From: a virus
DNA length: 7,046 nt
IMG/VR virus record: IMGVR_UViG_3300029462_000034
Span: 1 to 7,046 of that record
Direction: 5' to 3' (one strand)
This document shows, one piece after another, positions 1,338-7,046 of this stretch. A program made the position numbers and the translations under genes. The notes beneath the pieces are model-generated. The model was not told the DNA's origin. It did not search any database and was given only the letters and a program-made list of their open reading frames with translations. Within the stretch, counting starts at the first letter, position 1. Every line of letters starts with the position of its first letter.

Positions 1338-1354
1338 TTTAAAATTGTTTGATT

Positions 1355-1804
1355 ATGAATGCTAAAAATGAAGTAGTTTATGTACCACCTGTTTATGAGG
1401 AGGTACAACATGAGGTTACATCTGTTGATGATAATAATAACCCTTTGCGCACGTCTTTTCATACTGACGTCTCTTTGTTGCAGCGTATTGATACTATGCG
1501 TGCCGATGCTGAGACGTTGCGAGAAATTAAGGAATCTTTGCAGCCTATGATTGATAGTTCTAATTTCCGTACAGAGTTCGAACAAACTTTCGGTTCTCTT
1601 ACAGATGATGAGTTGATTAATTCTTGCCCTAGTCGTTATACTCAGACTGCAAGTGAGAAAATGTCTTATCTCAAAGAACTTGCTGCTAAGGATAAAGAAG
1701 CACGTGAAAAGGCTGCTGCCGCTCTTAAGGATAAAGAGGAAAAAGAAAAGGCTGCTAAAGAAAATGCTGATTTTCAGTCTCGATTAATGGAAATCTTTAA
1801 ATAG
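1355..1804 (+). CDS. Hypothetical 149-aa acidic protein with Lys/Glu/Ala-rich coiled-coil C-terminus; a possible scaffolding-type protein by position only
   Basis: The ATG at 1355 lies 18 nt after the VP1 stop; the track start at 1349 is a TTG two codons upstream. The ORF ends at TAG 1802-1804, 8 nt before the VP2 ATG. NNT codon bias matches the neighbours. The C-terminus reads KELAAKDKEAREKAAAALKDKEEKEKAAKEN. I recognise no family motif. Confidence 0.72.
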   Translation: MNAKNEVVYVPPVYEEVQHEVTSVDDNNNPLRTSFHTDVSLLQRIDTMRADAETLREIKESLQPMIDSSNFRTEFEQTFGSLTDDELINSCPSRYTQTASEKMSYLKELAAKDKEAREKAAAALKDKEEKEKAAKENADFQSRLMEIFK

Positions 1805-1812
1805 TTTTGCCT

Positions 1813-3270
1813 ATGTTGTCTAATATAATTAACTGGAGTGCTGCCGCTTTTGGCGGTACTCCTTTTCGTTTAAATAAGTGTACTGCTCTTGGTTCTGCTG
1901 CTGGTGGTGCTGCTGGTGGTGCTGCTGTTGGTGGTGTTCCTGGTGCTCTAGTTGGTGGTGCTCTAGGTCTTGCCGGTTCTTTGATTGGTGGTCTTTTTGG
2001 TAAACACAATACCGATAAGACTAATAAGTCGAACTATCAAATTATGCAAGAGCAGAATAAATTTAATAAAGAAGAAGCCCAAAAAAACCGAGATTGGCAA
2101 GAAATGATGTATCGTATGTTTGGTACGTCTTCTGCTAAGGCTGCTGATATGCGTGCTGCAGGTCTTAACCCTCTTCTTGGTGATGTTTCTGCTAGCGGAA
2201 ATGTTGGTAGTGGTGGTGCTGCTACTGCTGCTGAATCTGCTCAAATGATGCCTACCGATTATTCATTTATTGGTGATGCTGCTAATCGCGGTTTGGCTGC
2301 TTATAATACTACTCGTTCCGTTGATGCGTCTGTTTCTTTGCAGAAATCTCAAGAGAATGTTAATAAGTCTATAGAGGGTGTTAATATGGCTCAGAAAGGG
2401 CTTATGGAATCTCAATCCGCTATGCAAAAACTGACCTATAAGTTTGCTATGGATACGTATCAGAATCGATTGTTGCAAGAACAATTTCGGGCTGAATTGG
2501 AAAATTGGCGCGGTTTCGATGCTATGTATGATGCCCGTCTTAAAGCATTTAGTCTTTATAATGTTATGCCACAAGAGGTTGAAAAGAATGTTGCTCAAAC
2601 AATGTCTTTCTATGCTTCTGCCTTTCGTGATATTGCTGCCGGTAAATATACCCTTAAGCAAACCGAAAATTACGGTAAATGGTTATCTATTCAGCAGACG
2701 TTTGCCCATGCTGCTACTGTGCAAGGTCAGGCTGCCTTAATGCAAGGTCGTGCTGCCATAACAAATGCCAATGCCAATGCTAGTTATCTAAAACAGTTAG
2801 GTGGCTATTATGGTTCATTGATTTCGGGTCAAAACATGTCAAATGATATGCAGCGTTATTATACTGATTTTATGCTTGGTAGAATGCCTATTGGTAAGGC
2901 TGAGAGCATTCTTCGCCAAACACCTTATAAGCATTTGCTTGACTTGAACATTCAGCAAAATGAGTGGTCTTTGAACAAGTTGATGCAGGAGCCCGATTTG
3001 ATACGTTCTCTTAGTGGTATGTATAAATCAGAGACGTCTCTTACTAACAAGCGTGTTGATAGCTACGATACTGATAAAATCTTTGAGCGTGGTGAAAGTG
3101 TTACGCGTATGGTCAAGAATGTTTCTGACGGTATTAGTAACTTTACCCCTAAGCCTAAGTTTAAAAAAGGTTCTTCTACAGGTGGTGAACCTACACCACC
3201 GCCTAGCGGTAAATCTTGGCTTGATGCGTATCGTGAAAATCCTAATTATAGCCCTACTGGCTATAGATAA
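1813..3270 (+). CDS. VP2: Minor capsid / DNA pilot protein VP2 (phiX174 H-like)
   Basis: The ATG at 1813 is two codons after the track's TTG at 1807. The N-terminus has a Gly/Ala-rich hydrophobic segment, GSAAGGAAGGAAVGGVPGALVGGALGLAGSLIGGLFG (GxxxG glycine-zipper-like). It is followed by EEAQKNRDWQEMMYRMFGTSSAKAADMRAAGLNPLL, which matches the conserved ...AGLNP.L block of microvirus VP2 proteins. Its size (485 aa) and its position after VP1 fit this call. Confidence 0.85.
   Translation: MLSNIINWSAAAFGGTPFRLNKCTALGSAAGGAAGGAAVGGVPGALVGGALGLAGSLIGGLFGKHNTDKTNKSNYQIMQEQNKFNKEEAQKNRDWQEMMYRMFGTSSAKAADMRAAGLNPLLGDVSASGNVGSGGAATAAESAQMMPTDYSFIGDAANRGLAAYNTTRSVDASVSLQKSQENVNKSIEGVNMAQKGLMESQSAMQKLTYKFAMDTYQNRLLQEQFRAELENWRGFDAMYDARLKAFSLYNVMPQEVEKNVAQTMSFYASAFRDIAAGKYTLKQTENYGKWLSIQQTFAHAATVQGQAALMQGRAAITNANANASYLKQLGGYYGSLISGQNMSNDMQRYYTDFMLGRMPIGKAESILRQTPYKHLLDLNIQQNEWSLNKLMQEPDLIRSLSGMYKSETSLTNKRVDSYDTDKIFERGESVTRMVKNVSDGISNFTPKPKFKKGSSTGGEPTPPPSGKSWLDAYRENPNYSPTGYR
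1897..1935 (+). repeat. Tandem 12-nt repeat GCTGCTGGTGGT (2 exact copies plus a third with a GTT insertion) encoding (AAGG)n in VP2
   Basis: Direct reading gives 1897-1908 and 1909-1920 identical, and 1921-1935 = GCTGCTgttGGTGGT. A nearby GGTGCTCTA occurs at 1942-1950 and again at 1957-1965. Confidence 0.9.
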
Positions 3271-3276
3271 TAATTT

Positions 3277-3307
3277 AGGCGCAAAGGTAAAACCCTTGCG
3301 CCTTTTT
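3277..3307. terminator. Intrinsic terminator hairpin between the convergent VP2 (+) and 3308..3568 (-) genes
   Basis: AGGCGCAAAGG-TAAAA-CCCTTGCGCCT spans 3277-3303. That is 10 Watson-Crick pairs with one A.C mismatch and a 5-nt loop. It is followed on + by TTTTcTaTTTTT. It starts 7 nt after the VP2 stop and ends 5 nt from the stop of the minus-strand ORF. The U-tract is good for + and poor for - (AAATTATTA). Confidence 0.7.
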
Positions 3308-3568
3308 CTATTTTTCTACTTTAATCAGGATTTCTGTTACCTTTCGGTCTCCTTGAGCGGTCTTTTCGTTCTTGTAACAATATAGGCTACCTGCTCTTAC
3401 TTCTGTTGCGAATCCCATTTCTTTGTAATCGTTTTGAACTATATCGAATAAGTAATGTATAGCGTCTCTTCTTAGTCTGAAGAACTCGCCCATACCTAAG
3501 TATTTGTAATTTTGTTCTTTACTTGAAAGGCTTTCTGTTTGCTTGCTGTAATAATTCAATTTATACAT
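3308..3568 (-). CDS. Hypothetical 86-aa protein encoded antisense to all other genes
   Basis: It has a true ATG (CAT at 3566-3568 on +) and a TAG stop at 3308-3310 abutting the terminator hairpin. It is the only ORF of 70 aa or more lying wholly within 3271-4092 on either strand; only the 3' tail of the rejected +1 shadow ORF 3014..3385 reaches in. A Bacteroidetes-type promoter lies about 50 nt upstream. The protein is balanced and non-repetitive (K/E/Y-rich with a predicted helix GEFFRLRRDAIHYLFDIVQNDYKEMGF), unlike the Leu/Ser-rich shadow ORFs. Codons mostly end in A or C. I recognise no family. Confidence 0.6.
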   Translation of the reverse strand: MYKLNYYSKQTESLSSKEQNYKYLGMGEFFRLRRDAIHYLFDIVQNDYKEMGFATEVRAGSLYCYKNEKTAQGDRKVTEILIKVEK

Positions 3569-3619
3569 AGTCGTAATATTTAATTGTTTATTGTAAAAGG
3601 TCTTTCCTTTTATCTATTG

Positions 3620-3651
3620 CAAAGGTACGAATTTTCTCTGACACTACCAAA
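3620..3651 (-). promoter_or_regulatory. Candidate Bacteroidetes sigma-ABfr-type promoter for the antisense gene
   Basis: The minus strand reads TTTG (3651->3648), a 20-nt spacer, then TAccTTTG (3627->3620). This matches the published Bacteroides -33 TTTG / -7 TAnnTTTG consensus. The predicted leader to the ATG at 3568 is about 45-50 nt. Confidence 0.55.
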
Positions 3652-3791
3652 TAATTTTAGTTAAATATCTGTTAATCGTACGTTAAATAATGCAAACCCG
3701 TTTTTAGATAATTCTCATTCAACTTAAAATACCTTCCGTAAAAATCCATATTTTTTTATGAAATAATAAAAATTTATATTATACTATTAAT

Positions 3792-3858
3792 GTATCTGTT
3801 TTGTATTTGTGTGCGTGCGCATTTTATACGTACGTACACAATTTAACTAAACAGATAC
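3792..3858. repeat. 67-nt composite inverted repeat / hairpin with alternating purine-pyrimidine core
   Basis: The outer arms are perfect: GTATCTGTTT (3792-3801) and AAACAGATAC (3849-3858). The inner arms are TTGTGTGCGTGCGCAT (3807-3822) and ATACGTACGTACACAA (3826-3841). They give 13 Watson-Crick pairs, 2 G.T pairs and 1 C.A mismatch around a TTT loop. The inner arms are built from (GTGC)n and (ACGT)n tetranucleotide repeats, with strict Pu-Py alternation over 14 nt and 16 nt respectively. Confidence 0.85.
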
Positions 3859-3936
3859 TTTATATTGGTTTGTCTGCTAGAAAAACCTTAGCTTTGCGCG
3901 GAAAAGTTTATAACTTATTAGTAACTACCTTTTTAT

Positions 3937-3946
3937 GAAAATTTTC
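3937..3946. promoter_or_regulatory. Perfect 10-bp palindrome GAAAATTTTC, followed by a half-site repeat CGAAAATTCC (3950-3959)
   Basis: Direct reading. It lies in the non-coding region about 110 nt upstream of the + promoter. It is AT-rich, so chance occurrence is plausible. Confidence 0.3.
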
Positions 3947-3987
3947 TCCCGAAAATTCCTACTCTCTTGTTATGGGTAGGCAAAAGT

Positions 3988-4003
3988 GGGAATACATATT
4001 CCC
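3988..4003. promoter_or_regulatory. Inverted repeat GGGAATA-ca-TATTCCC (7+7 bp, 2-bp spacer), a candidate operator
   Basis: Direct reading. It is centred about 60 nt upstream of the -33 element of the + strand promoter. Confidence 0.35.
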
Positions 4004-4056
4004 TAATTACTGCACTTTTGTTCCCTGTAACTATATTCCTAAATAATGTTAACAAA

Positions 4057-4088
4057 TTTGGTAGTTCCAAAACTTCCTTTTATCTTTG
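4057..4088 (+). promoter_or_regulatory. Candidate Bacteroidetes-type promoter for the + strand transcription unit
   Basis: TTTG (4057-4060), a 20-nt spacer, then TAtcTTTG (4081-4088). The ATG at 4093 follows 4 nt after the -7 box, which implies a leaderless or near-leaderless first gene. I found no comparable consensus match in front of VP4, VP1 or VP2. Confidence 0.6.
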
Positions 4089-4092
4089 TGCC

Positions 4093-4308
4093 ATGAAAAA
4101 GGAAATTATACAAATTATCATCAAAGTAGCGCTGTATGCGCTCGGATTGATAGCTGCTTATTTTGGTGTCTCTGCTATGACATCATGCAGTACGTCTCAC
4201 AATGTAGATGCTAGTGGTCGCACTACTATTGTTACTGTTGATACCACAATTGTTAAACATAACGGCTTTGTCCGTTCTAAAAATTTTAAGCCTTATGGTG
4301 AATATTAA
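4093..4308 (+). CDS. Small putative lipoprotein (71 aa precursor, about 40 aa mature)
   Basis: MKKEIIQIIIKVALYALGLIAAYFGVSAMTSC|STSHNVDASG... has a basic N-terminus, a hydrophobic core and a relaxed lipobox (M-T-S-C, Cys32) of the kind common in Bacteroidetes. The mature part has NNT-biased codons like the core genes. The ATG at 4093 is chosen over the in-frame TTG at 3967 because a signal peptide must be N-terminal and the promoter lies inside that extension. The alternative reading is a signal-anchored membrane protein. Confidence 0.68.
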   Translation: MKKEIIQIIIKVALYALGLIAAYFGVSAMTSCSTSHNVDASGRTTIVTVDTTIVKHNGFVRSKNFKPYGEY

Positions 4309-4698: not shown

Positions 4699-6252
4699 AT
4701 GGCTCTCTTTCCTCGTTGCAATAATCCTGTTCCTGTCGTTGGTCGTCATGGAGTTACTCTTGTTGGTTGCCACTCTTGTATTCAATGCCGTGTTGCTGCG
4801 CAGGAACATCTTTGCAAAATACTAGAGGTTGAAGCATCTAAACATCAATATGTTGAATTTATTACCAATACTTATGATGATTTACATTTGCCCTATATTG
4901 ATACTTCTTATTTGTACCCTTTTGGTTATGCCCTCCGCATACCTAATCGTGTAGTAAAAAAGTATAACAGAAGAACTAAAAGTTTTTACTTTGTAGAGGA
5001 TAAAATCTCTAAATCGTTTAAACTTACAAGTTTTGATACTGTAGACACTGCTCCTATGCTTCGTGATTATTATGCACGTATTGACAAATACTATAGCAGA
5101 TTTCCTTCTCGTTCTCGTGGTATAAGAAATAACTCTGTTGTTCCTATACTATGGTATGATGATATTAGAAAATATATAGGTCGTTTAAGAAAATGGTTTT
5201 TTAAAGAATATGGTGAAACATTACGGTACTACATTATTTGCGAGTACGGTTCACAATCATTCCGTCCGCATTATCATATCCTATTATTCCACGATTCGCC
5301 TAGAGCGAGAGCGGATTTTAGGAATGTTCGAACTTTGCCCCAATCAACCAAAGAAAATCCCCGAGAAATTTGTGTTAAACTCGATTTGGCTGATTTATGG
5401 GTCTACGGTGATACGACTTCAAAGGTTACAGACGGCAACATGCAGGAATATGTTAGTAAGTATCTTACACAACATTCTGACTTCCCTAGAGTGCTTGACA
5501 AGTTTCCACAAAGGAGTTTTCACTCAATCTTATTGGGTTCAAAGGTCAGAAATGAGGTTAGAGAATTACTCAAGGCTCGAGATTTCGAAACACTTACAAC
5601 AGATTATGTTGTTAACAAAAAAGGTGTGCGACGCCCTGTTTCCATGTCCGATGCGTATTACTCTCAATTTGCCGTTAAATTTACAGGTTCTTCCCTTTTT
5701 AATGTTGCAGAAACTTCTTCCCTTTTTCGTTCGGTGGTATACGTTGCCCGCCGTTTCTTCGCTACCAAAGGCGAAATCTATGATGACGGTCAAGTAAGGG
5801 AGTTTCTTATGTGGTTGCTTAAGCCTTCCACTGTTGATTTATATAAATATAATTATCAGTTTCGTGCTGTTCATTGGTATGCTGTCACTTTCGCTAAACC
5901 TATTTATAACAGTTCCGATTCTGTCAACCCTTTAAAATCGTTGCTTTATGCTGCACATCATCACTATTCGTTATCCTCCTATTTAGGTTTGGGTTTCTAT
6001 GAATGTCTTAAGTTACGTTTTGACTTCGTAGCTTGGAAGGATTATCTAAATATGATTCAGTATTTCCAAAATTTGGAAGATGACAAGTTATTTGCTTATG
6101 AAAATTATGCAAGTATGTCTCCATATACTGGAACTTATGATTTTAATAGTTTAAAGACACGGTCTATATTTCAGTATCAAGTTCAGAAAGCTAATATGGC
6201 TTATATTGAAAATATTAAGCACCGTGATGTTGTTGATTCTTATAAAAATTAA
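4699..6252 (+). CDS. VP4: Replication initiation protein VP4 (phiX174 gpA-like HUH rolling-circle endonuclease)
   Basis: It has an N-terminal Cys cluster (C7, CHSCIQC at 24-30, C39). Motif I is FITNTYD (nt 4858-4878). The HUH motif is RPHYHILLFH (His191/His193, nt 5269-5277). Motif III is EYVSKYL, with two Tyr three residues apart (Y251/Y255, nt 5449-5463), as with the paired catalytic tyrosines of phiX174 gpA. It is 517 aa. Confidence 0.93.
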   Translation: MALFPRCNNPVPVVGRHGVTLVGCHSCIQCRVAAQEHLCKILEVEASKHQYVEFITNTYDDLHLPYIDTSYLYPFGYALRIPNRVVKKYNRRTKSFYFVEDKISKSFKLTSFDTVDTAPMLRDYYARIDKYYSRFPSRSRGIRNNSVVPILWYDDIRKYIGRLRKWFFKEYGETLRYYIICEYGSQSFRPHYHILLFHDSPRARADFRNVRTLPQSTKENPREICVKLDLADLWVYGDTTSKVTDGNMQEYVSKYLTQHSDFPRVLDKFPQRSFHSILLGSKVRNEVRELLKARDFETLTTDYVVNKKGVRRPVSMSDAYYSQFAVKFTGSSLFNVAETSSLFRSVVYVARRFFATKGEIYDDGQVREFLMWLLKPSTVDLYKYNYQFRAVHWYAVTFAKPIYNSSDSVNPLKSLLYAAHHHYSLSSYLGLGFYECLKLRFDFVAWKDYLNMIQYFQNLEDDKLFAYENYASMSPYTGTYDFNSLKTRSIFQYQVQKANMAYIENIKHRDVVDSYKN

Positions 6253-6257
6253 TTATT

Positions 6258-7046
6258 ATGGCTAATAAAGTTTTAGGTATGCACCGCCTTAAGAATAAGG
6301 TAAATCGTAATGCTTTCGATTTGTCTCATCGACACATGTTTACCGCTCAAGTTGGTGAATTGCTGCCTGTATTTACTCAGTGGGTTAACCCTAATGAGAC
6401 GTTCAAAATTGGGTATAATGGTAAAACCCGTACCGCTGCCCTTAACACCGATGCATTTACTCGTATTCGTGAAAATATTCAGTACTTTTTTGTACCTTTT
6501 CAGTCTCTTTGGAAGTATTTTGAGCAGCAGGTTAATAATATGATTAAAGGTGACTCAGGACAAAATATTTCAAAGTTTGCTAGTAGTTCTACAGAGGCAT
6601 CTAAAATTTCTACTTCTCTTCCTTATGTTTCGTACGTAGATTTGGGTTTTTGGTTATCTTTAATGTTTAACCATGCTCTTGATGCTGTAGATACTTATTT
6701 TCATACTTATACTTCTGGTCGTTCTGCTGTTGGTTTTAAAGATTTCTGTGATTCTTCTACTTCATACAATGATGTCTTTGTTTGTGATGGCTATCGTTTA
6801 TGTCGTGCTGGTAAACTTTTAATGTCTCTTGGCTATGGTAATTTTAGTACCGTTATTCAGTATGATATTTATGCTATGGCTGAAGCGTTTGTTAGAATGG
6901 GTTCATCTTGGAATAAAACCGCTTTTTCCAATAGTTCTGTTTATGGGCTTAATCTTGTCGGGTTTGAATCTACTAAGGTATATAATAGTCCTAATTTGTC
7001 TATTTTACCTTTACTTGCTTATCATAAGATTTGCAATGACCATTAT
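6258..7046 (+). CDS. VP1: Major capsid protein VP1, 5' portion (runs off the window end and continues at nt 78 by circularity)
   Basis: This ORF is absent from the ORF track because no stop is reached. From the ATG at 6258 it reads MANKVLGMHRLKNKVNRNAFDLSHRHMFTAQVGELLPVFTQWVNPNETFKI...FTRIRENIQYFFVPFQSLWKYFEQ. These are the canonical N-terminal blocks of microvirus capsid proteins (N.FDLSH, G.L.P, YFFVP...W). My hand translation found no stop in 263 codons. Confidence 0.93.
   Translation, partial: MANKVLGMHRLKNKVNRNAFDLSHRHMFTAQVGELLPVFTQWVNPNETFKIGYNGKTRTAALNTDAFTRIRENIQYFFVPFQSLWKYFEQQVNNMIKGDSGQNISKFASSSTEASKISTSLPYVSYVDLGFWLSLMFNHALDAVDTYFHTYTSGRSAVGFKDFCDSSTSYNDVFVCDGYRLCRAGKLLMSLGYGNFSTVIQYDIYAMAEAFVRMGSSWNKTAFSNSSVYGLNLVGFESTKVYNSPNLSILPLLAYHKICNDHY
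6970..7046. repeat. Terminal redundancy copy 2 (circular-contig overlap)
   Basis: It is identical to 1-77 and lies in frame inside VP1, so it marks closure of a 6,969-nt circle rather than a biological terminal repeat. Confidence 0.97.

Follow-up and report, generated by a model that had tools for sequence, protein, structure and literature searches.

The Microviridae are the textbook example of compact ssDNA phages whose genes all face the same way. In temperate filamentous ssDNA phages such as CTXphi, the rstR-type repressor genes are placed differently, on the opposite strand, divergent from the main promoter and expressed from double-stranded DNA only; their alleles are sharply bounded and highly divergent within otherwise similar phage genomes. 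RstR is the HTH repressor of a lysogenic phage, and its operators vary along with it. Among dsDNA phages, moron-type genes and Acr-type loci encode small orphan proteins in self-contained units of promoter, gene and terminator. These loci are characterized by patchy spread, frequent gain and loss, turnover of alleles and paralogues, and a varying number of small ORFs behind each promoter.

The one-strand rule has also shaped how microvirus genomes are read, as the largest microvirus survey (Kirchberger et al. 2022) dropped reverse-oriented genes on the ground that all genes lie on one strand (PMC9239249). The only earlier report of a complementary-strand microvirus gene that we found is that of Roux et al. 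(2012), where a 153-codon ORF on the complementary strand of Human_gut_33_003 was called highly unusual (PMC3394797). Ambisense circular ssDNA genomes are known from eukaryotic CRESS-DNA viruses, including Circoviridae and Geminiviridae (PMC5075696). Gokushoviruses offer a further point of comparison in their defensive hypervariable regions (Kirchberger et al. 2021 PNAS, as summarised in PMC9239249 and PMC9512667), sharply delimited segments of otherwise conserved microvirus genomes that are linked to conflict between phages in the form of superinfection exclusion; according to PMC9512667, the pilot protein, encoded on the coding strand, is involved in that effect.

The window considered here is the whole 7,046-nt stretch of the IMG/VR record IMGVR_UViG_3300029462_000034. 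It has a terminal overlap of 77 nt, and the genome is therefore a 6,969-nt circle; the promoters of this ~7-kb gut microvirus point to a Bacteroidales host. An earlier sequence-only reading had proposed that an 86-codon ATG-initiated ORF runs here against the other genes, starting from the premise that all described Microviridae use one strand. That premise agrees with the literature, apart from the one isolated 153-codon exception, and the ORF, named AS86 here, is present. The locus comprises the following features.

3269..3690, both strands: AS86 module (terminator, coding sequence, leader, promoter and upstream element), sharing nucleotide similarity with distant genomes.
3277..3303, both strands: putative terminator hairpin shared by the convergent VP2 and AS86 units; 12-bp stem with 7 G-C pairs.
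3308..3568, minus strand: AS86 coding sequence, ATG at 3568-3566, stop codon TAG at 3310-3308.
3569..3615, minus strand: predicted A-rich leader of 47 nt, placed by the start-site spacing rule (PMC6847099); sequence conserved.
3595..3611, minus strand: 5' hairpin AAAAGG-AAAGA-CCTTTT, 6 bp with a 5-nt loop.
3620..3651, minus strand: candidate promoter P_AS, -33 TTTG at 3651-3648, 20-nt spacer, -7 TACCTTTG at 3627-3620.
3652..3690, minus strand: AT-rich upstream element (TTAACAGATATTTAACTAAA) with two TTAAC repeats 12 nt apart start to start; kept in divergent lineages.
4057..4088, plus strand: main plus-strand promoter, the second of two full consensus matches, divergent from P_AS.

According to the ORF listing, the 86 codons begin with ATG and fill 3308..3568 of the minus strand, stop included. 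The VP2 stop occupies 3268-3270 and the AS86 ORF lies 38 nt past it, in a region that had been described as lacking plus-strand coding; the listing indeed holds no plus-strand ORF of 40 aa or more between 3386 and 3800. In every one of the 32 non-artefactual loci the homologue is antisense to VP1, VP2 and VP4 and follows VP2 immediately on its 3' side. Candidate departures from this picture were rejected. Locus L021, an apparent same-strand exception, is a fold-back assembly chimera; a 19-kb contig is a concatemer of the circular genome; and an invertible segment finds no genuine locus in the other orientation and only a weak flanking inverted repeat (I1, 75% complementary).

The ORF of Human_gut_33_003 is, like AS86, a complementary-strand accessory ORF from the human gut. 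Compared by description, it has 153 codons, adjoins a peptidase M15 gene and was described from one genome, whereas AS86 belongs to a family of 82-93-aa proteins with hundreds of members, a fixed spot 3' of VP2 and its own conserved, predicted promoter and terminator. The likeness to CRESS-DNA viruses lies in having genes on both strands, with promoters that diverge from one intergenic region and complementary-sense genes that need the double-stranded replicative form. In those viruses, however, it is core genes (Rep or Cap) that are read in complementary sense, the infected cells are eukaryotic and the proteins are unrelated, while AS86 is a single small accessory gene reversed in a phage genome that otherwise runs one way.

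Viewed as a single sequence, the ORF is only modestly unlikely by chance: an ATG ORF of at least 86 codons arose in 143 of 5000 mononucleotide shuffles of 3271-4092 (2.9%), which makes it rarer than the expectation of about 0.2 given in the sequence-only reading. That frequency could favour the view that AS86 is no functional protein gene and that its open frame and its conservation reflect chance or a constraint on the nucleic acid itself (an antisense RNA, for example, or some structural element), and the GenBank records of eight homologous genomes leave AS86 unannotated, with no feature on the homologue's own strand in any of them (8/8). The comparative data effectively refute this view, which we consider scarcely credible. 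At least 454 homologue clusters at 90% identity (20 clusters at 50% identity) keep the frame open, down to ~37% identity, and nearly all members are full length at 82-93 aa, occur on microvirus-sized contigs and show no domain fusions. Conservation of this kind had been named beforehand as the decisive check, and it was clearly passed. Purifying selection, the other expectation, is apparent, with a median dN/dS of 0.14 over 84 pairs in the AS86 frame alone, read at a median dS of 1.05 where synonymous divergence is near saturation; the ratio is 0.76-1.7 in four control frames and an expected 0.29 in the antisense mirror frame, and each of the five frames other than that of AS86 contains 2-11 stops. 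Amino-acid changes within the family are conservative, the ATG context and promoter are conserved, and structure prediction is confident. AS86 is almost certainly a genuine protein-coding gene.

Its product has 86 aa, a mass of 10.3 kDa and a computed pI of 8.95 (family median 8.6), and a search for a transmembrane segment or signal peptide found neither. The AlphaFold2 model (pLDDT 87.7) has the topology b1-b2-a1-b3-b4-b5 with a single 17-residue helix, at the start of which lies a conserved basic motif, FRL(R/K)(R/K)..A.H; the conserved basic residues are given by F30 R31 L32 R/K33, H38 and K66, and would also suit nucleic-acid binding. Variable loops take in residues 13-27 and 70-74 of the model. 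The predicted protein is best described as a soluble, mildly basic 10-kDa alpha/beta protein.

The codon usage of AS86 had been noted as deviating from that of the other genes, with strand mutational asymmetry or foreign origin offered as causes. The deviation itself stands, with third codon positions that are 45% A and 23% C in AS86 compared with 50-60% T in every plus-strand gene, and of the two causes strand mutational asymmetry explains it best. Seen in mirror image, its third positions match the plus-strand bias toward T, and the gene has therefore resided for a long time in its present orientation.

The sigma-ABfr consensus of Bacteroidetes pairs TTTG at -33 with TAnnTTTG (in refined form TAHHTTTG) at -7, separated by about 19-21 nt (PMC6847099, PMC4747536), transcription starts 4-5 nt past the -7 element, and A(-3) is a positive determinant (PMC6847099). 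P_AS has the form TTTG-N20-TACCTTTG and lies 51 nt upstream of the AS86 ATG. The pattern TTTG-N18-22-TAnnTTTG has only two full matches when both strands of the window are scanned (0.47 expected), and P_AS is one of them. The proposal of a Bacteroidetes promoter upstream of the ORF is well founded as far as the consensus goes, and P_AS would be expected to act as a sigma-ABfr promoter. Of 30 loci, 21 carry an exact match to the full pattern at a distance of 71-92 nt (mostly 82-87) from the downstream ATG, among them lineages of ~27% VP1 identity, and in two-gene variants the same promoter precedes the first antisense ORF. A scan of IMG/VR with the 20-nt P_AS motif for other cargo returned mostly phage contigs of 30-170 kb and was uninformative, since the motif appears to be a general promoter sequence of Bacteroidetes phages or to match by chance.

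From the spacing rule, transcription would start near 3615, which places the start site 5 nt downstream of the final G in the -7 box, and an A is present at -3 of the AS86 start codon. The hairpin at the head of the leader folds at -4.8 kcal/mol as RNA (z = -4.1). Three of its six pairs show two-sided compensatory changes (13 cells), 98.8% of cells are paired, and its covariation score was reached by none of 500 shuffles and by no slid control; as there are no G-U intermediates, RNA and DNA forms of the hairpin are indistinguishable. At the other end of the gene, the suggested hairpin between the ends of VP2 and the ORF was found at 3277-3303, between the two stop codons, as a 12-bp GC-rich stem. 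It is followed by TTTTT on the plus-strand (VP2) side and by TAAATTATTAT on the minus-strand (AS86) side, where the scan rule of 5 T in 8 bases is satisfied by something other than a clean U-run. A strong hairpin occupies this junction in nearly all loci, its position conserved and its sequence differing in divergent lineages, and it probably terminates transcription of both VP2 and AS86.

Together these elements suggest that AS86 is very probably transcribed separately, from a unit of its own. The packaged plus strand would first be made into the double-stranded replicative form, on which host sigma-ABfr polymerase would then fire P_AS (3651-3620, minus). The predicted mRNA of ~340 nt would begin near 3615 with an A-rich leader and 5' hairpin and run as far as the hairpin that AS86 and VP2 have in common. 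The antisense placement would insulate AS86 from the genome-spanning plus-strand transcription unit and, more speculatively, may restrict its expression to the replicative-form stage.

The module carries the main nucleotide similarity, ~70% over 170-434 nt, to seven genomes whose VP1, VP2 and VP4 are only ~25-35% identical to those of the window (capsids ~27%). The other nucleotide matches to distant genomes are limited to a 155-nt stretch of LIPO71 (L003) and a 92-nt stretch of VP1 (L007). Similarity to L002-L005, L007 and L026 ends between 3684 and 3691, and the element at 3652..3690 marks the outer edge of the horizontally shared module. The module seems, from these alignments, to have moved between distant microvirus lineages from promoter to terminator. 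Among closer genomes, identity falls to 42-68% exactly over the coding sequence (3300-3550), and alleles only 37-41% identical stand between flanks that are 82-100% identical. Allele classes include those of the window, of MG945894 (83 aa) and of PV067919. Duplication and extension also occur: MG945831 carries tandem AS86 paralogues, and other genomes have extra antisense ORFs of 41-52 aa behind the same promoter, for which no family match was found. High recombination is general in this clade, and allele replacement could be a by-product of it.

The gene is also frequently lost. AS86 is kept in 7 of 34 close relatives in IMG/VR and deleted in the remaining 27, where 185-437 nt are missing and the -7 box, leader and ATG are gone in every case; left breakpoints vary and leave 3' remnants of differing length. 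In most deleted genomes the deletion ends before the upstream element (right breakpoints mostly ~3631) and leaves most of it in place, so the role of this element extends beyond AS86. Repeated loss of AS86 could simply follow from packaging pressure, the genome being unusually large for a microvirus (~7 kb).

No known family or solved fold matches AS86. Foldseek found no significant hit in the PDB (best E 0.03, TM <0.45), what it returned being loose PAS, longin or roadblock-like topologies, and the BFVD returned one family member (A0A345N1P6) and otherwise uncharacterised phage proteins only. Profile searches of PDB sequences, NCBIfam, PHROGs and PADLOC, the last of which covers defence proteins and not anti-defence proteins, gave no AS86 match. 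Kinship with RecA was considered and rejected: the PDB match at E = 7e-10 came from concatenated RecA fusion chains and amounts to ~6 bits per repeat (E about 200), and RecA_C (PF21096) scores 16 bits against a cut-off of 27, with 3 of 70 members matching. A pattern-based scan, which divergent prophage copies could escape, found no homologue in one genome each of 185,579 bacterial and archaeal species, and none was found in plasmids. A VP1-based scan recovered two integrated or binned relatives, L035 and L036, neither with an antisense gene, and the genome has no integrase. Because no family or fold matches, the functional class of AS86 is drawn from its evolutionary behaviour only.

A gene divergent from the only other consensus promoter invites comparison with a cI- or RstR-like switch, or with an autoregulator binding its own 5' hairpin, that would control the lytic or the carrier/lysogenic state. 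The sequence ATTTGGTAGT at -33 is common to both promoters (inverted repeat I12), the TTAAC repeat is conserved upstream of P_AS and the hairpin downstream of it, the basic motif at the helix start and the family's median pI would fit such a role, and proviruses are known among relatives of Bacteroidales microviruses (PMC3091885; locus L036). At the main promoter, the predicted start site coincides with the ATG (4093) of a 71-aa lipoprotein-like ORF, and the -7 box ends 4 nt before the ATG in 14 of 14 genomes checked from the 7-kb clade. Like rstR-type genes, AS86 is an opposite-strand gene of an ssDNA phage with divergent, sharply bounded alleles. Unlike RstR, it has no HTH: Pfam, NCBIfam, PHROG, the AlphaFold2 model and PDB fold matches disclosed neither an HTH nor an RHH fold, the folds that the sequence-only reading had suggested looking for, nor any other known DNA-binding fold or family. 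Genomes with AS86 alleles of 37-41% identity agree at 90-100% across the control region (3600-4000), which therefore does not co-vary with the alleles. The 27 relatives that have lost gene and promoter keep the main promoter region ~90% identical, and the lytic programme therefore does not need AS86. No lysogen carrying the gene turned up in the pattern-based species scan, and the prophage-like L035 and L036 lack it. The regulator and provirus options of the sequence-only reading, which had also listed immunity and anti-defence, are weakened accordingly; a regulatory role appears unlikely, and a core regulator less likely than a factor directed at the host or a competitor.

A helper or host-takeover protein, useful and not essential in replicative-form replication, complementary-strand synthesis, packaging or the timing of lysis, would be in keeping with a protein that is small, basic and made from the replicative form and that is under strong purifying selection inside each allele class. 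AS86 also adjoins 3700-3950, the most conserved non-coding stretch of the genome (92-100% identical), which holds palindromes expected of an origin or packaging signal. Such a protein would be expected to co-evolve with the backbone, but pairwise identities of AS86 show no correlation with those of any other gene (rho about 0), and the gene crosses between lineages with ~27% capsid identity and is frequently deleted. The match to the RecA C-terminal domain, below the family cut-off and confined to so few members, adds no weight, and we regard a helper role as quite improbable.

We prefer to think of AS86 as a dispensable accessory factor acting in trans on a component of the host or of a competitor, in anti-defence or exclusion, and not as a core regulator, replication protein or assembly protein; on the evolutionary record we would put this at a little short of an even chance. 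The reading fits because selection is purifying within allele classes while alleles are swapped wholesale by recombination, transferred between lineages, duplicated or extended, and repeatedly deleted. The traits of an anti-defence-type locus are present, namely a small protein, its own promoter, patchy spread and fast turnover of alleles and paralogues, and with its variable small ORFs this self-contained unit resembles moron and Acr-type loci. It differs from Acr-type loci in that no Aca-type HTH partner was found at the AS86 locus and no anti-defence protein in the PDB or BFVD matches it in sequence or fold. With the defensive segments of gokushoviruses it shares a bounded hypervariable stretch (42-68% over 3300-3550 against 82-100% in the flanks), whereas it forms an ORF apart from the pilot-protein gene, on the other strand and behind a promoter of its own. 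Taken as a whole, the proposal of a separately transcribed gene that encodes an accessory conflict factor stands at about even odds.

The presence, in hundreds of gut microvirus genomes, of a reverse gene with purifying selection and its own promoter means that the rule that all microvirus genes face one way needs revising, as do the annotation pipelines built on it. Module similarity across capsids of ~27% identity has implications for the view that gene exchange between microvirus families is rare. Gut microviruses may, more tentatively, include a widespread ambisense group in which a self-contained complementary-strand unit (promoter, stabilising hairpin at the 5' end, one or two small genes and shared terminator), active from the replicative form only, serves as an exchangeable slot for genes of counter-defence or competition between phages. 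If so, that slot would move horizontally between deeply divergent microvirus lineages, the one-direction rule and the claim of rare cross-family exchange would both fall, and surveys that delete reverse-oriented ORFs would have systematically missed this class of gene. The first Bacteroides microvirus isolate, phiHBP1 (PMC13064476), has all its genes on one strand and no AS86 homologue, making it a possible chassis for gain-of-function tests. How a phage tolerates, or exploits, transcription that runs counter to rolling-circle replication becomes a question with AS86, which would also offer a handle on how the ssDNA phages of Bacteroidales meet host defences or rival phages.

The window carries an exact 77-nt direct repeat at its termini (1-77 is identical to 6970-7046) and is therefore a circular genome with a true length of 6,969 nt, unusually large for a microvirus. 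All recognisable genes other than AS86 lie on the plus strand.

Genes and ORFs of the window, with family matches
1349-1804, plus strand, 151-aa ORF
1807-3270, plus strand, VP2 pilot protein (pilot-protein PHROGs)
3308-3568, minus strand, AS86, 86 codons with an ATG start
4093-4308, plus strand, LIPO71, a 71-aa lipoprotein-like ORF
up to 4696, plus strand, small ORFs
4699-6252, plus strand, VP4 replication initiator (PF23343, phrog_942)
6258 across the circle junction to 1337, plus strand, VP1, 682 aa

The plus strand is T-rich, as is expected of the packaged strand in a microvirus, with T at 50-60% of third codon positions in each of its genes. As the sequence-only reading had stated, the approximately 820 nt around AS86 (3271-4092) are free of plus-strand coding. 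That reading took AS86 for an antisense protein gene while allowing for a chance ORF, and length alone is indeed weak evidence: 2.9% of shuffles of 3271-4092 give an ORF at least as long, which is only mildly improbable. Conservation argues against chance. Eight Microviridae genomes, from the faeces of pigs, dogs and humans, contain full-length homologues at 37-52% identity (tblastn of GenBank phage records), and in none of the eight records is the homologue annotated on its own strand. Searches of a 5.8-billion-protein collection gave overlapping sets of 234, 165 and at least 454 clusters, nearly all of 82-93 aa with full-length coverage and nearly all on microvirus-sized contigs, the few longer contigs including one known concatemer. 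When 1.84 billion representatives were searched exhaustively with a profile, just 20 clusters were recovered at the 50% level, without any domain fusion. Across 14 coding sequences from the window's own AS86 subfamily (84 pairs, Nei-Gojobori), median dN/dS is 0.14 at a median dS of 1.05; over the same alignment columns four control frames give 0.76-1.7 and the antisense mirror frame 0.29, as expected, and each of the five other frames contains 2-11 stops. Because the homologues keep the frame open and dN/dS lies far from 1, the sequence-only reading is supported on its central point: AS86 is almost certainly a real gene, and a non-coding explanation of the open frame is extremely improbable.

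The orientation is equally constant. AS86 lies opposite to VP1, VP2 and VP4 and directly 3′ of VP2 in 8/8 GenBank records and in all usable metagenomic loci. The single apparent same-strand exception, contig L021, was rejected as a fold-back chimera (bases 1-1288 repeat 1512-2799 in reverse complement), and the 19-kb contig from which L030 comes is an assembly artefact, a head-to-tail concatemer of about 2.8 copies of the circular genome. The A/C-ending codons of AS86 had been noted as a possible sign of either strand mutational asymmetry or foreign origin. Its third positions (45% A, 20% T) are the mirror image of those in the plus-strand genes, so synonymous sites track the strand rather than the reading direction. 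This composition is consistent with AS86 having long been antisense and exposed to the packaged strand's mutational bias, and it speaks against both a recent insertion of foreign DNA and an inversion made in assembly.

The predicted AS86 promoter, P_AS (3651-3620, minus strand), has the form TTTG-N20-TACCTTTG and lies 51 nt upstream of the ATG. Over both strands of the genome the Bacteroidetes -33/-7 consensus, described with its sigma factor in PMC6847099 and PMC4747536, is matched in full only twice, against 0.47 expected, and P_AS is one of these matches. In 21/30 loci an exact full-pattern match precedes the ATG by 71-92 nt (mostly 82-87), and the pattern extends to lineages with VP1 only ~27% identical. 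Most loci lacking a match at that distance have either a contig end or an extra small antisense ORF between leader and AS86, and near-identical promoter and leader precede this ORF wherever upstream sequence suffices. According to Baez et al. (PMC6847099), transcription starts 4-5 nt past the -7 element; the predicted AS86 start lies near 3615 and is followed by an A-rich leader of 47 nt that has an A at -3. Four nucleotides into this predicted transcript is a 6-bp hairpin (3611-3595; RNA fold -4.8 kcal/mol, z = -4.1) with compensatory double changes at three pairs, 98.8% of cells paired and a covariation score unmatched by 500 shuffles or any slid control. Being so near the 5′ end, it would most simply stabilise the AS86 mRNA, and since G-U intermediates are absent it may have a role at the DNA level. 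At the opposite end of the gene, a GC-rich hairpin of 12 bp (3277-3303) separates the stops of AS86 and VP2; read in the VP2 direction it is followed by a clean T-run, and read in the AS86 direction by a T-rich tail. A hairpin 3′ of the AS86 stop is kept in position in nearly all loci, another hairpin sequence apparently filling the same terminator role in divergent lineages. The promoter and common hairpin that had been said to bracket AS86 thus both hold up, and the gene is very probably expressed from its own minus-strand promoter.

The motif GTACCTTTGCnnYAGAnAAA, 20 nt long and taken from around the -7 box of P_AS, also occurs in 74 viral contigs from IMG/VR (L037-L108, 30-170 kb), mostly of large dsDNA phage, and the small contigs L050, L062 and L070 additionally have the ATTTGGTAGTTTCAGAAA spacer in common with the P_AS region. 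The motif may be an extended strong-promoter consensus of Bacteroidetes phages, or chance.

The second consensus promoter (4057-4088, plus strand) has the extended -33 sequence ATTTGGTAGT in common with P_AS and ends 4 nt before the LIPO71 ATG in 14/14 clade genomes checked, which places the predicted start on the A of that ATG and would make the mRNA leaderless. LIPO71 (MKKEIIQIIIKVALYALGLIAAYFGVSAMTSC...) has a signal peptide, a lipobox-like Cys and a weak, sub-threshold NCBIfam match to YgdI/YgdR lipoproteins; it is 48-61% identical across microviruses whose capsids are ~27% identical, and is a candidate lysis or exclusion lipoprotein. The promoter pair and the predicted common hairpin terminator give the genome what looks like a two-unit layout, with divergent promoters ~400 nt apart and a single common terminator: a long plus-strand unit runs round the circle and a short minus-strand unit carries AS86. 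In this layout the antisense orientation gives AS86 a predicted promoter and terminator of its own, insulated from the genome-spanning plus-strand unit.

Between the two promoters, no part of the genome is better conserved than non-coding 3700-3950 (92-100% identity to relatives ~85% identical overall). This stretch contains inverted repeats and palindromes (3788-3804 with 3846-3862; GTACGTAC near 3830; TGCGTGCGCA near 3812), is still present in genomes with an AS86 deletion, and is a candidate for the origin of replication or for a packaging signal.

AS86 is a hydrophilic, mildly basic protein of 10.3 kDa (GRAVY -0.78; pI 8.95, family median 8.6) with no signal peptide or membrane segment by sequence properties. 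A confident AlphaFold2 model (70-sequence alignment, pLDDT 87.7, pTM 0.73) has the elements b1 2-12, b2 28-30, a1 34-50, b3 54-58, b4 61-69 and b5 75-85. The most conserved residues are M1, Y2, F30-R31-L32, A36, Y48, E56 and C64-Y65-K66, and the most variable parts are the loops 13-27 and 70-74. AS86 has no family match in Pfam, PHROG, NCBIfam or PADLOC and no similar solved structure by sequence profile or by fold; the only strong match in a BFVD fold search is a member of its own family in UniProt (A0A345N1P6), the others being uncharacterised phage proteins, and a family member in nr is DAG77847.1, "MAG TPA: hypothetical protein". AS86 is an orphan protein, with no characterised relative among the libraries searched.

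The gene evolves apart from its surroundings. Against the window, PV067919 and MG945894 show 84-88% identity over the whole genome and 88-92% in VP2, with AS86 only 41% and 37% identical, respectively. Segments of 50 nt show 42-68% identity precisely across 3300-3550 and 82-100% in the flanks, and non-coding 3600-4000 is 90-100% identical despite the diverged alleles. When 13 genomes of the 7-kb clade are compared pair by pair, AS86 identity (37-97%) shows no correlation with the identity of any other gene (Spearman rho -0.09 to 0.09), whereas the other genes correlate with some neighbours at 0.3-0.57. In seven further genomes AS86 is 41-53% identical, though VP1, VP2 and VP4 are only ~25-35% identical to the window. 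The main nucleotide similarity of these seven lies in the AS86 module, which runs from terminator through coding sequence, leader and promoter to an upstream element (3269/3301-3690, ~70% over 170-434 nt), and further matches are only a short LIPO71 stretch (L003) and a 92-nt VP1 stretch (L007). Kirchberger et al. 2022 (PMC9239249) concluded that gene exchange across microvirus families is rare. L003 (MG945831) also carries tandem AS86 paralogues of 87 aa each (4771-5034 and 5067-5330, both minus), the second with its own AACAATTAAA...ATG leader segment. The extra antisense ORF between conserved leader and AS86 (L008, which is MG945894, L011, L025, L111, L112 and L023) is a conserved 41-44-aa protein (MVTIKFINVNGKGQITVKD...LLAVGYGILKIEQ) in several genomes and an unrelated one of 52 aa in L023; neither matches the family libraries searched. 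In L028 (1186-1611, protein P0255) an AS86 copy is frameshifted after about residue 33 into a 141-aa read-through product, either a pseudogene or a sequencing error.

Loss is frequent. Among 34 IMG/VR genomes of the same clade with enough sequence (VP2 82-94% identical), AS86 is present in 7, one of them with a 36-aa remnant only, and absent from 27. These 27 (among L109-L145) lack 185-437 nt corresponding to window 3306-3752, and each deletion takes the AS86 ATG, leader and -7 box; genome size is ~6.7-6.8 kb without AS86 and ~7.0 kb with it. Left breakpoints fall anywhere between 3306 and 3458, so that the 3′ remnants differ in length (L124 and L131 keep ~130-150 nt of the AS86 3′ end, and L124 encodes a recognisable 36-aa remnant); the losses are therefore many independent deletions rather than ancestral absence.

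Since close relatives manage without it, AS86 is dispensable for the basic infection cycle and is thus unlikely to serve as a core regulator or in replication or assembly; purifying selection where it is kept means that in some conditions it earns its place. One role suggested from sequence, that of a repressor-type or immunity regulator, is unlikely. Neither the predicted model nor the family searches show an HTH or RHH fold, the model has no other known DNA-binding fold, and the adjacent control region does not co-vary with AS86 alleles. Expression from a provirus had also been allowed for, and a pattern-based search of 185,579 species, one genome each, found no prophage copies of AS86. A Bacteroidaceae prophage relative, integrated at 5900-12320 of the 173-kb MAG contig L036, has a LIPO71-like ORF (61% identical), VP4, VP1 and VP2 in that order without an antisense gene; it apparently ends just after VP2, followed by a short tandem repeat translating as SHFYLSHFYLSHF and by host genes from 12321. 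This prophage points to Bacteroidaceae as hosts of the wider group. Less likely still is a non-essential role in helping the virus through its own cycle, and the remaining probability falls to something else. Allele replacement within conserved flanks, promoter-to-terminator movement between distant lineages, turnover of paralogues and partner ORFs, and frequent loss form a pattern typical of conflict-type phage accessory genes. We tentatively read AS86 as such a factor, acting for example in anti-defence or inter-phage exclusion, with confidence a little short of even; as the protein appears cytoplasmic, anti-defence comes somewhat ahead of exclusion.

More speculatively, minus-strand transcription would use the plus strand as template and run head-on to rolling-circle synthesis, so that AS86 might be expressed only early, at the replicative-form stage, and might be costly to carry. 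Such a cost, added to the limit that packaging sets on an unusually large genome, might account for the frequent deletions.

In temperate inoviruses, repressor genes on the reverse strand are ordinary. Reverse-strand genes are likewise ordinary in ambisense CRESS-DNA viruses (PMC5075696), which AS86 resembles in this respect, so its arrangement is not a new principle. Within Microviridae, Roux et al. 2012 (PMC3394797) described a single complementary-strand ORF, of 153 codons, in one gut microvirus and stated that no other case was on record, and we found nothing in the literature on such genes beyond that report. Kirchberger et al. 2022 (PMC9239249) described all microviruses as having unidirectional genes and removed reverse-oriented genes from >13,000 genomes. 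The finding of AS86 would surprise the specialist, change annotation practice for these viruses and open a directly testable question.
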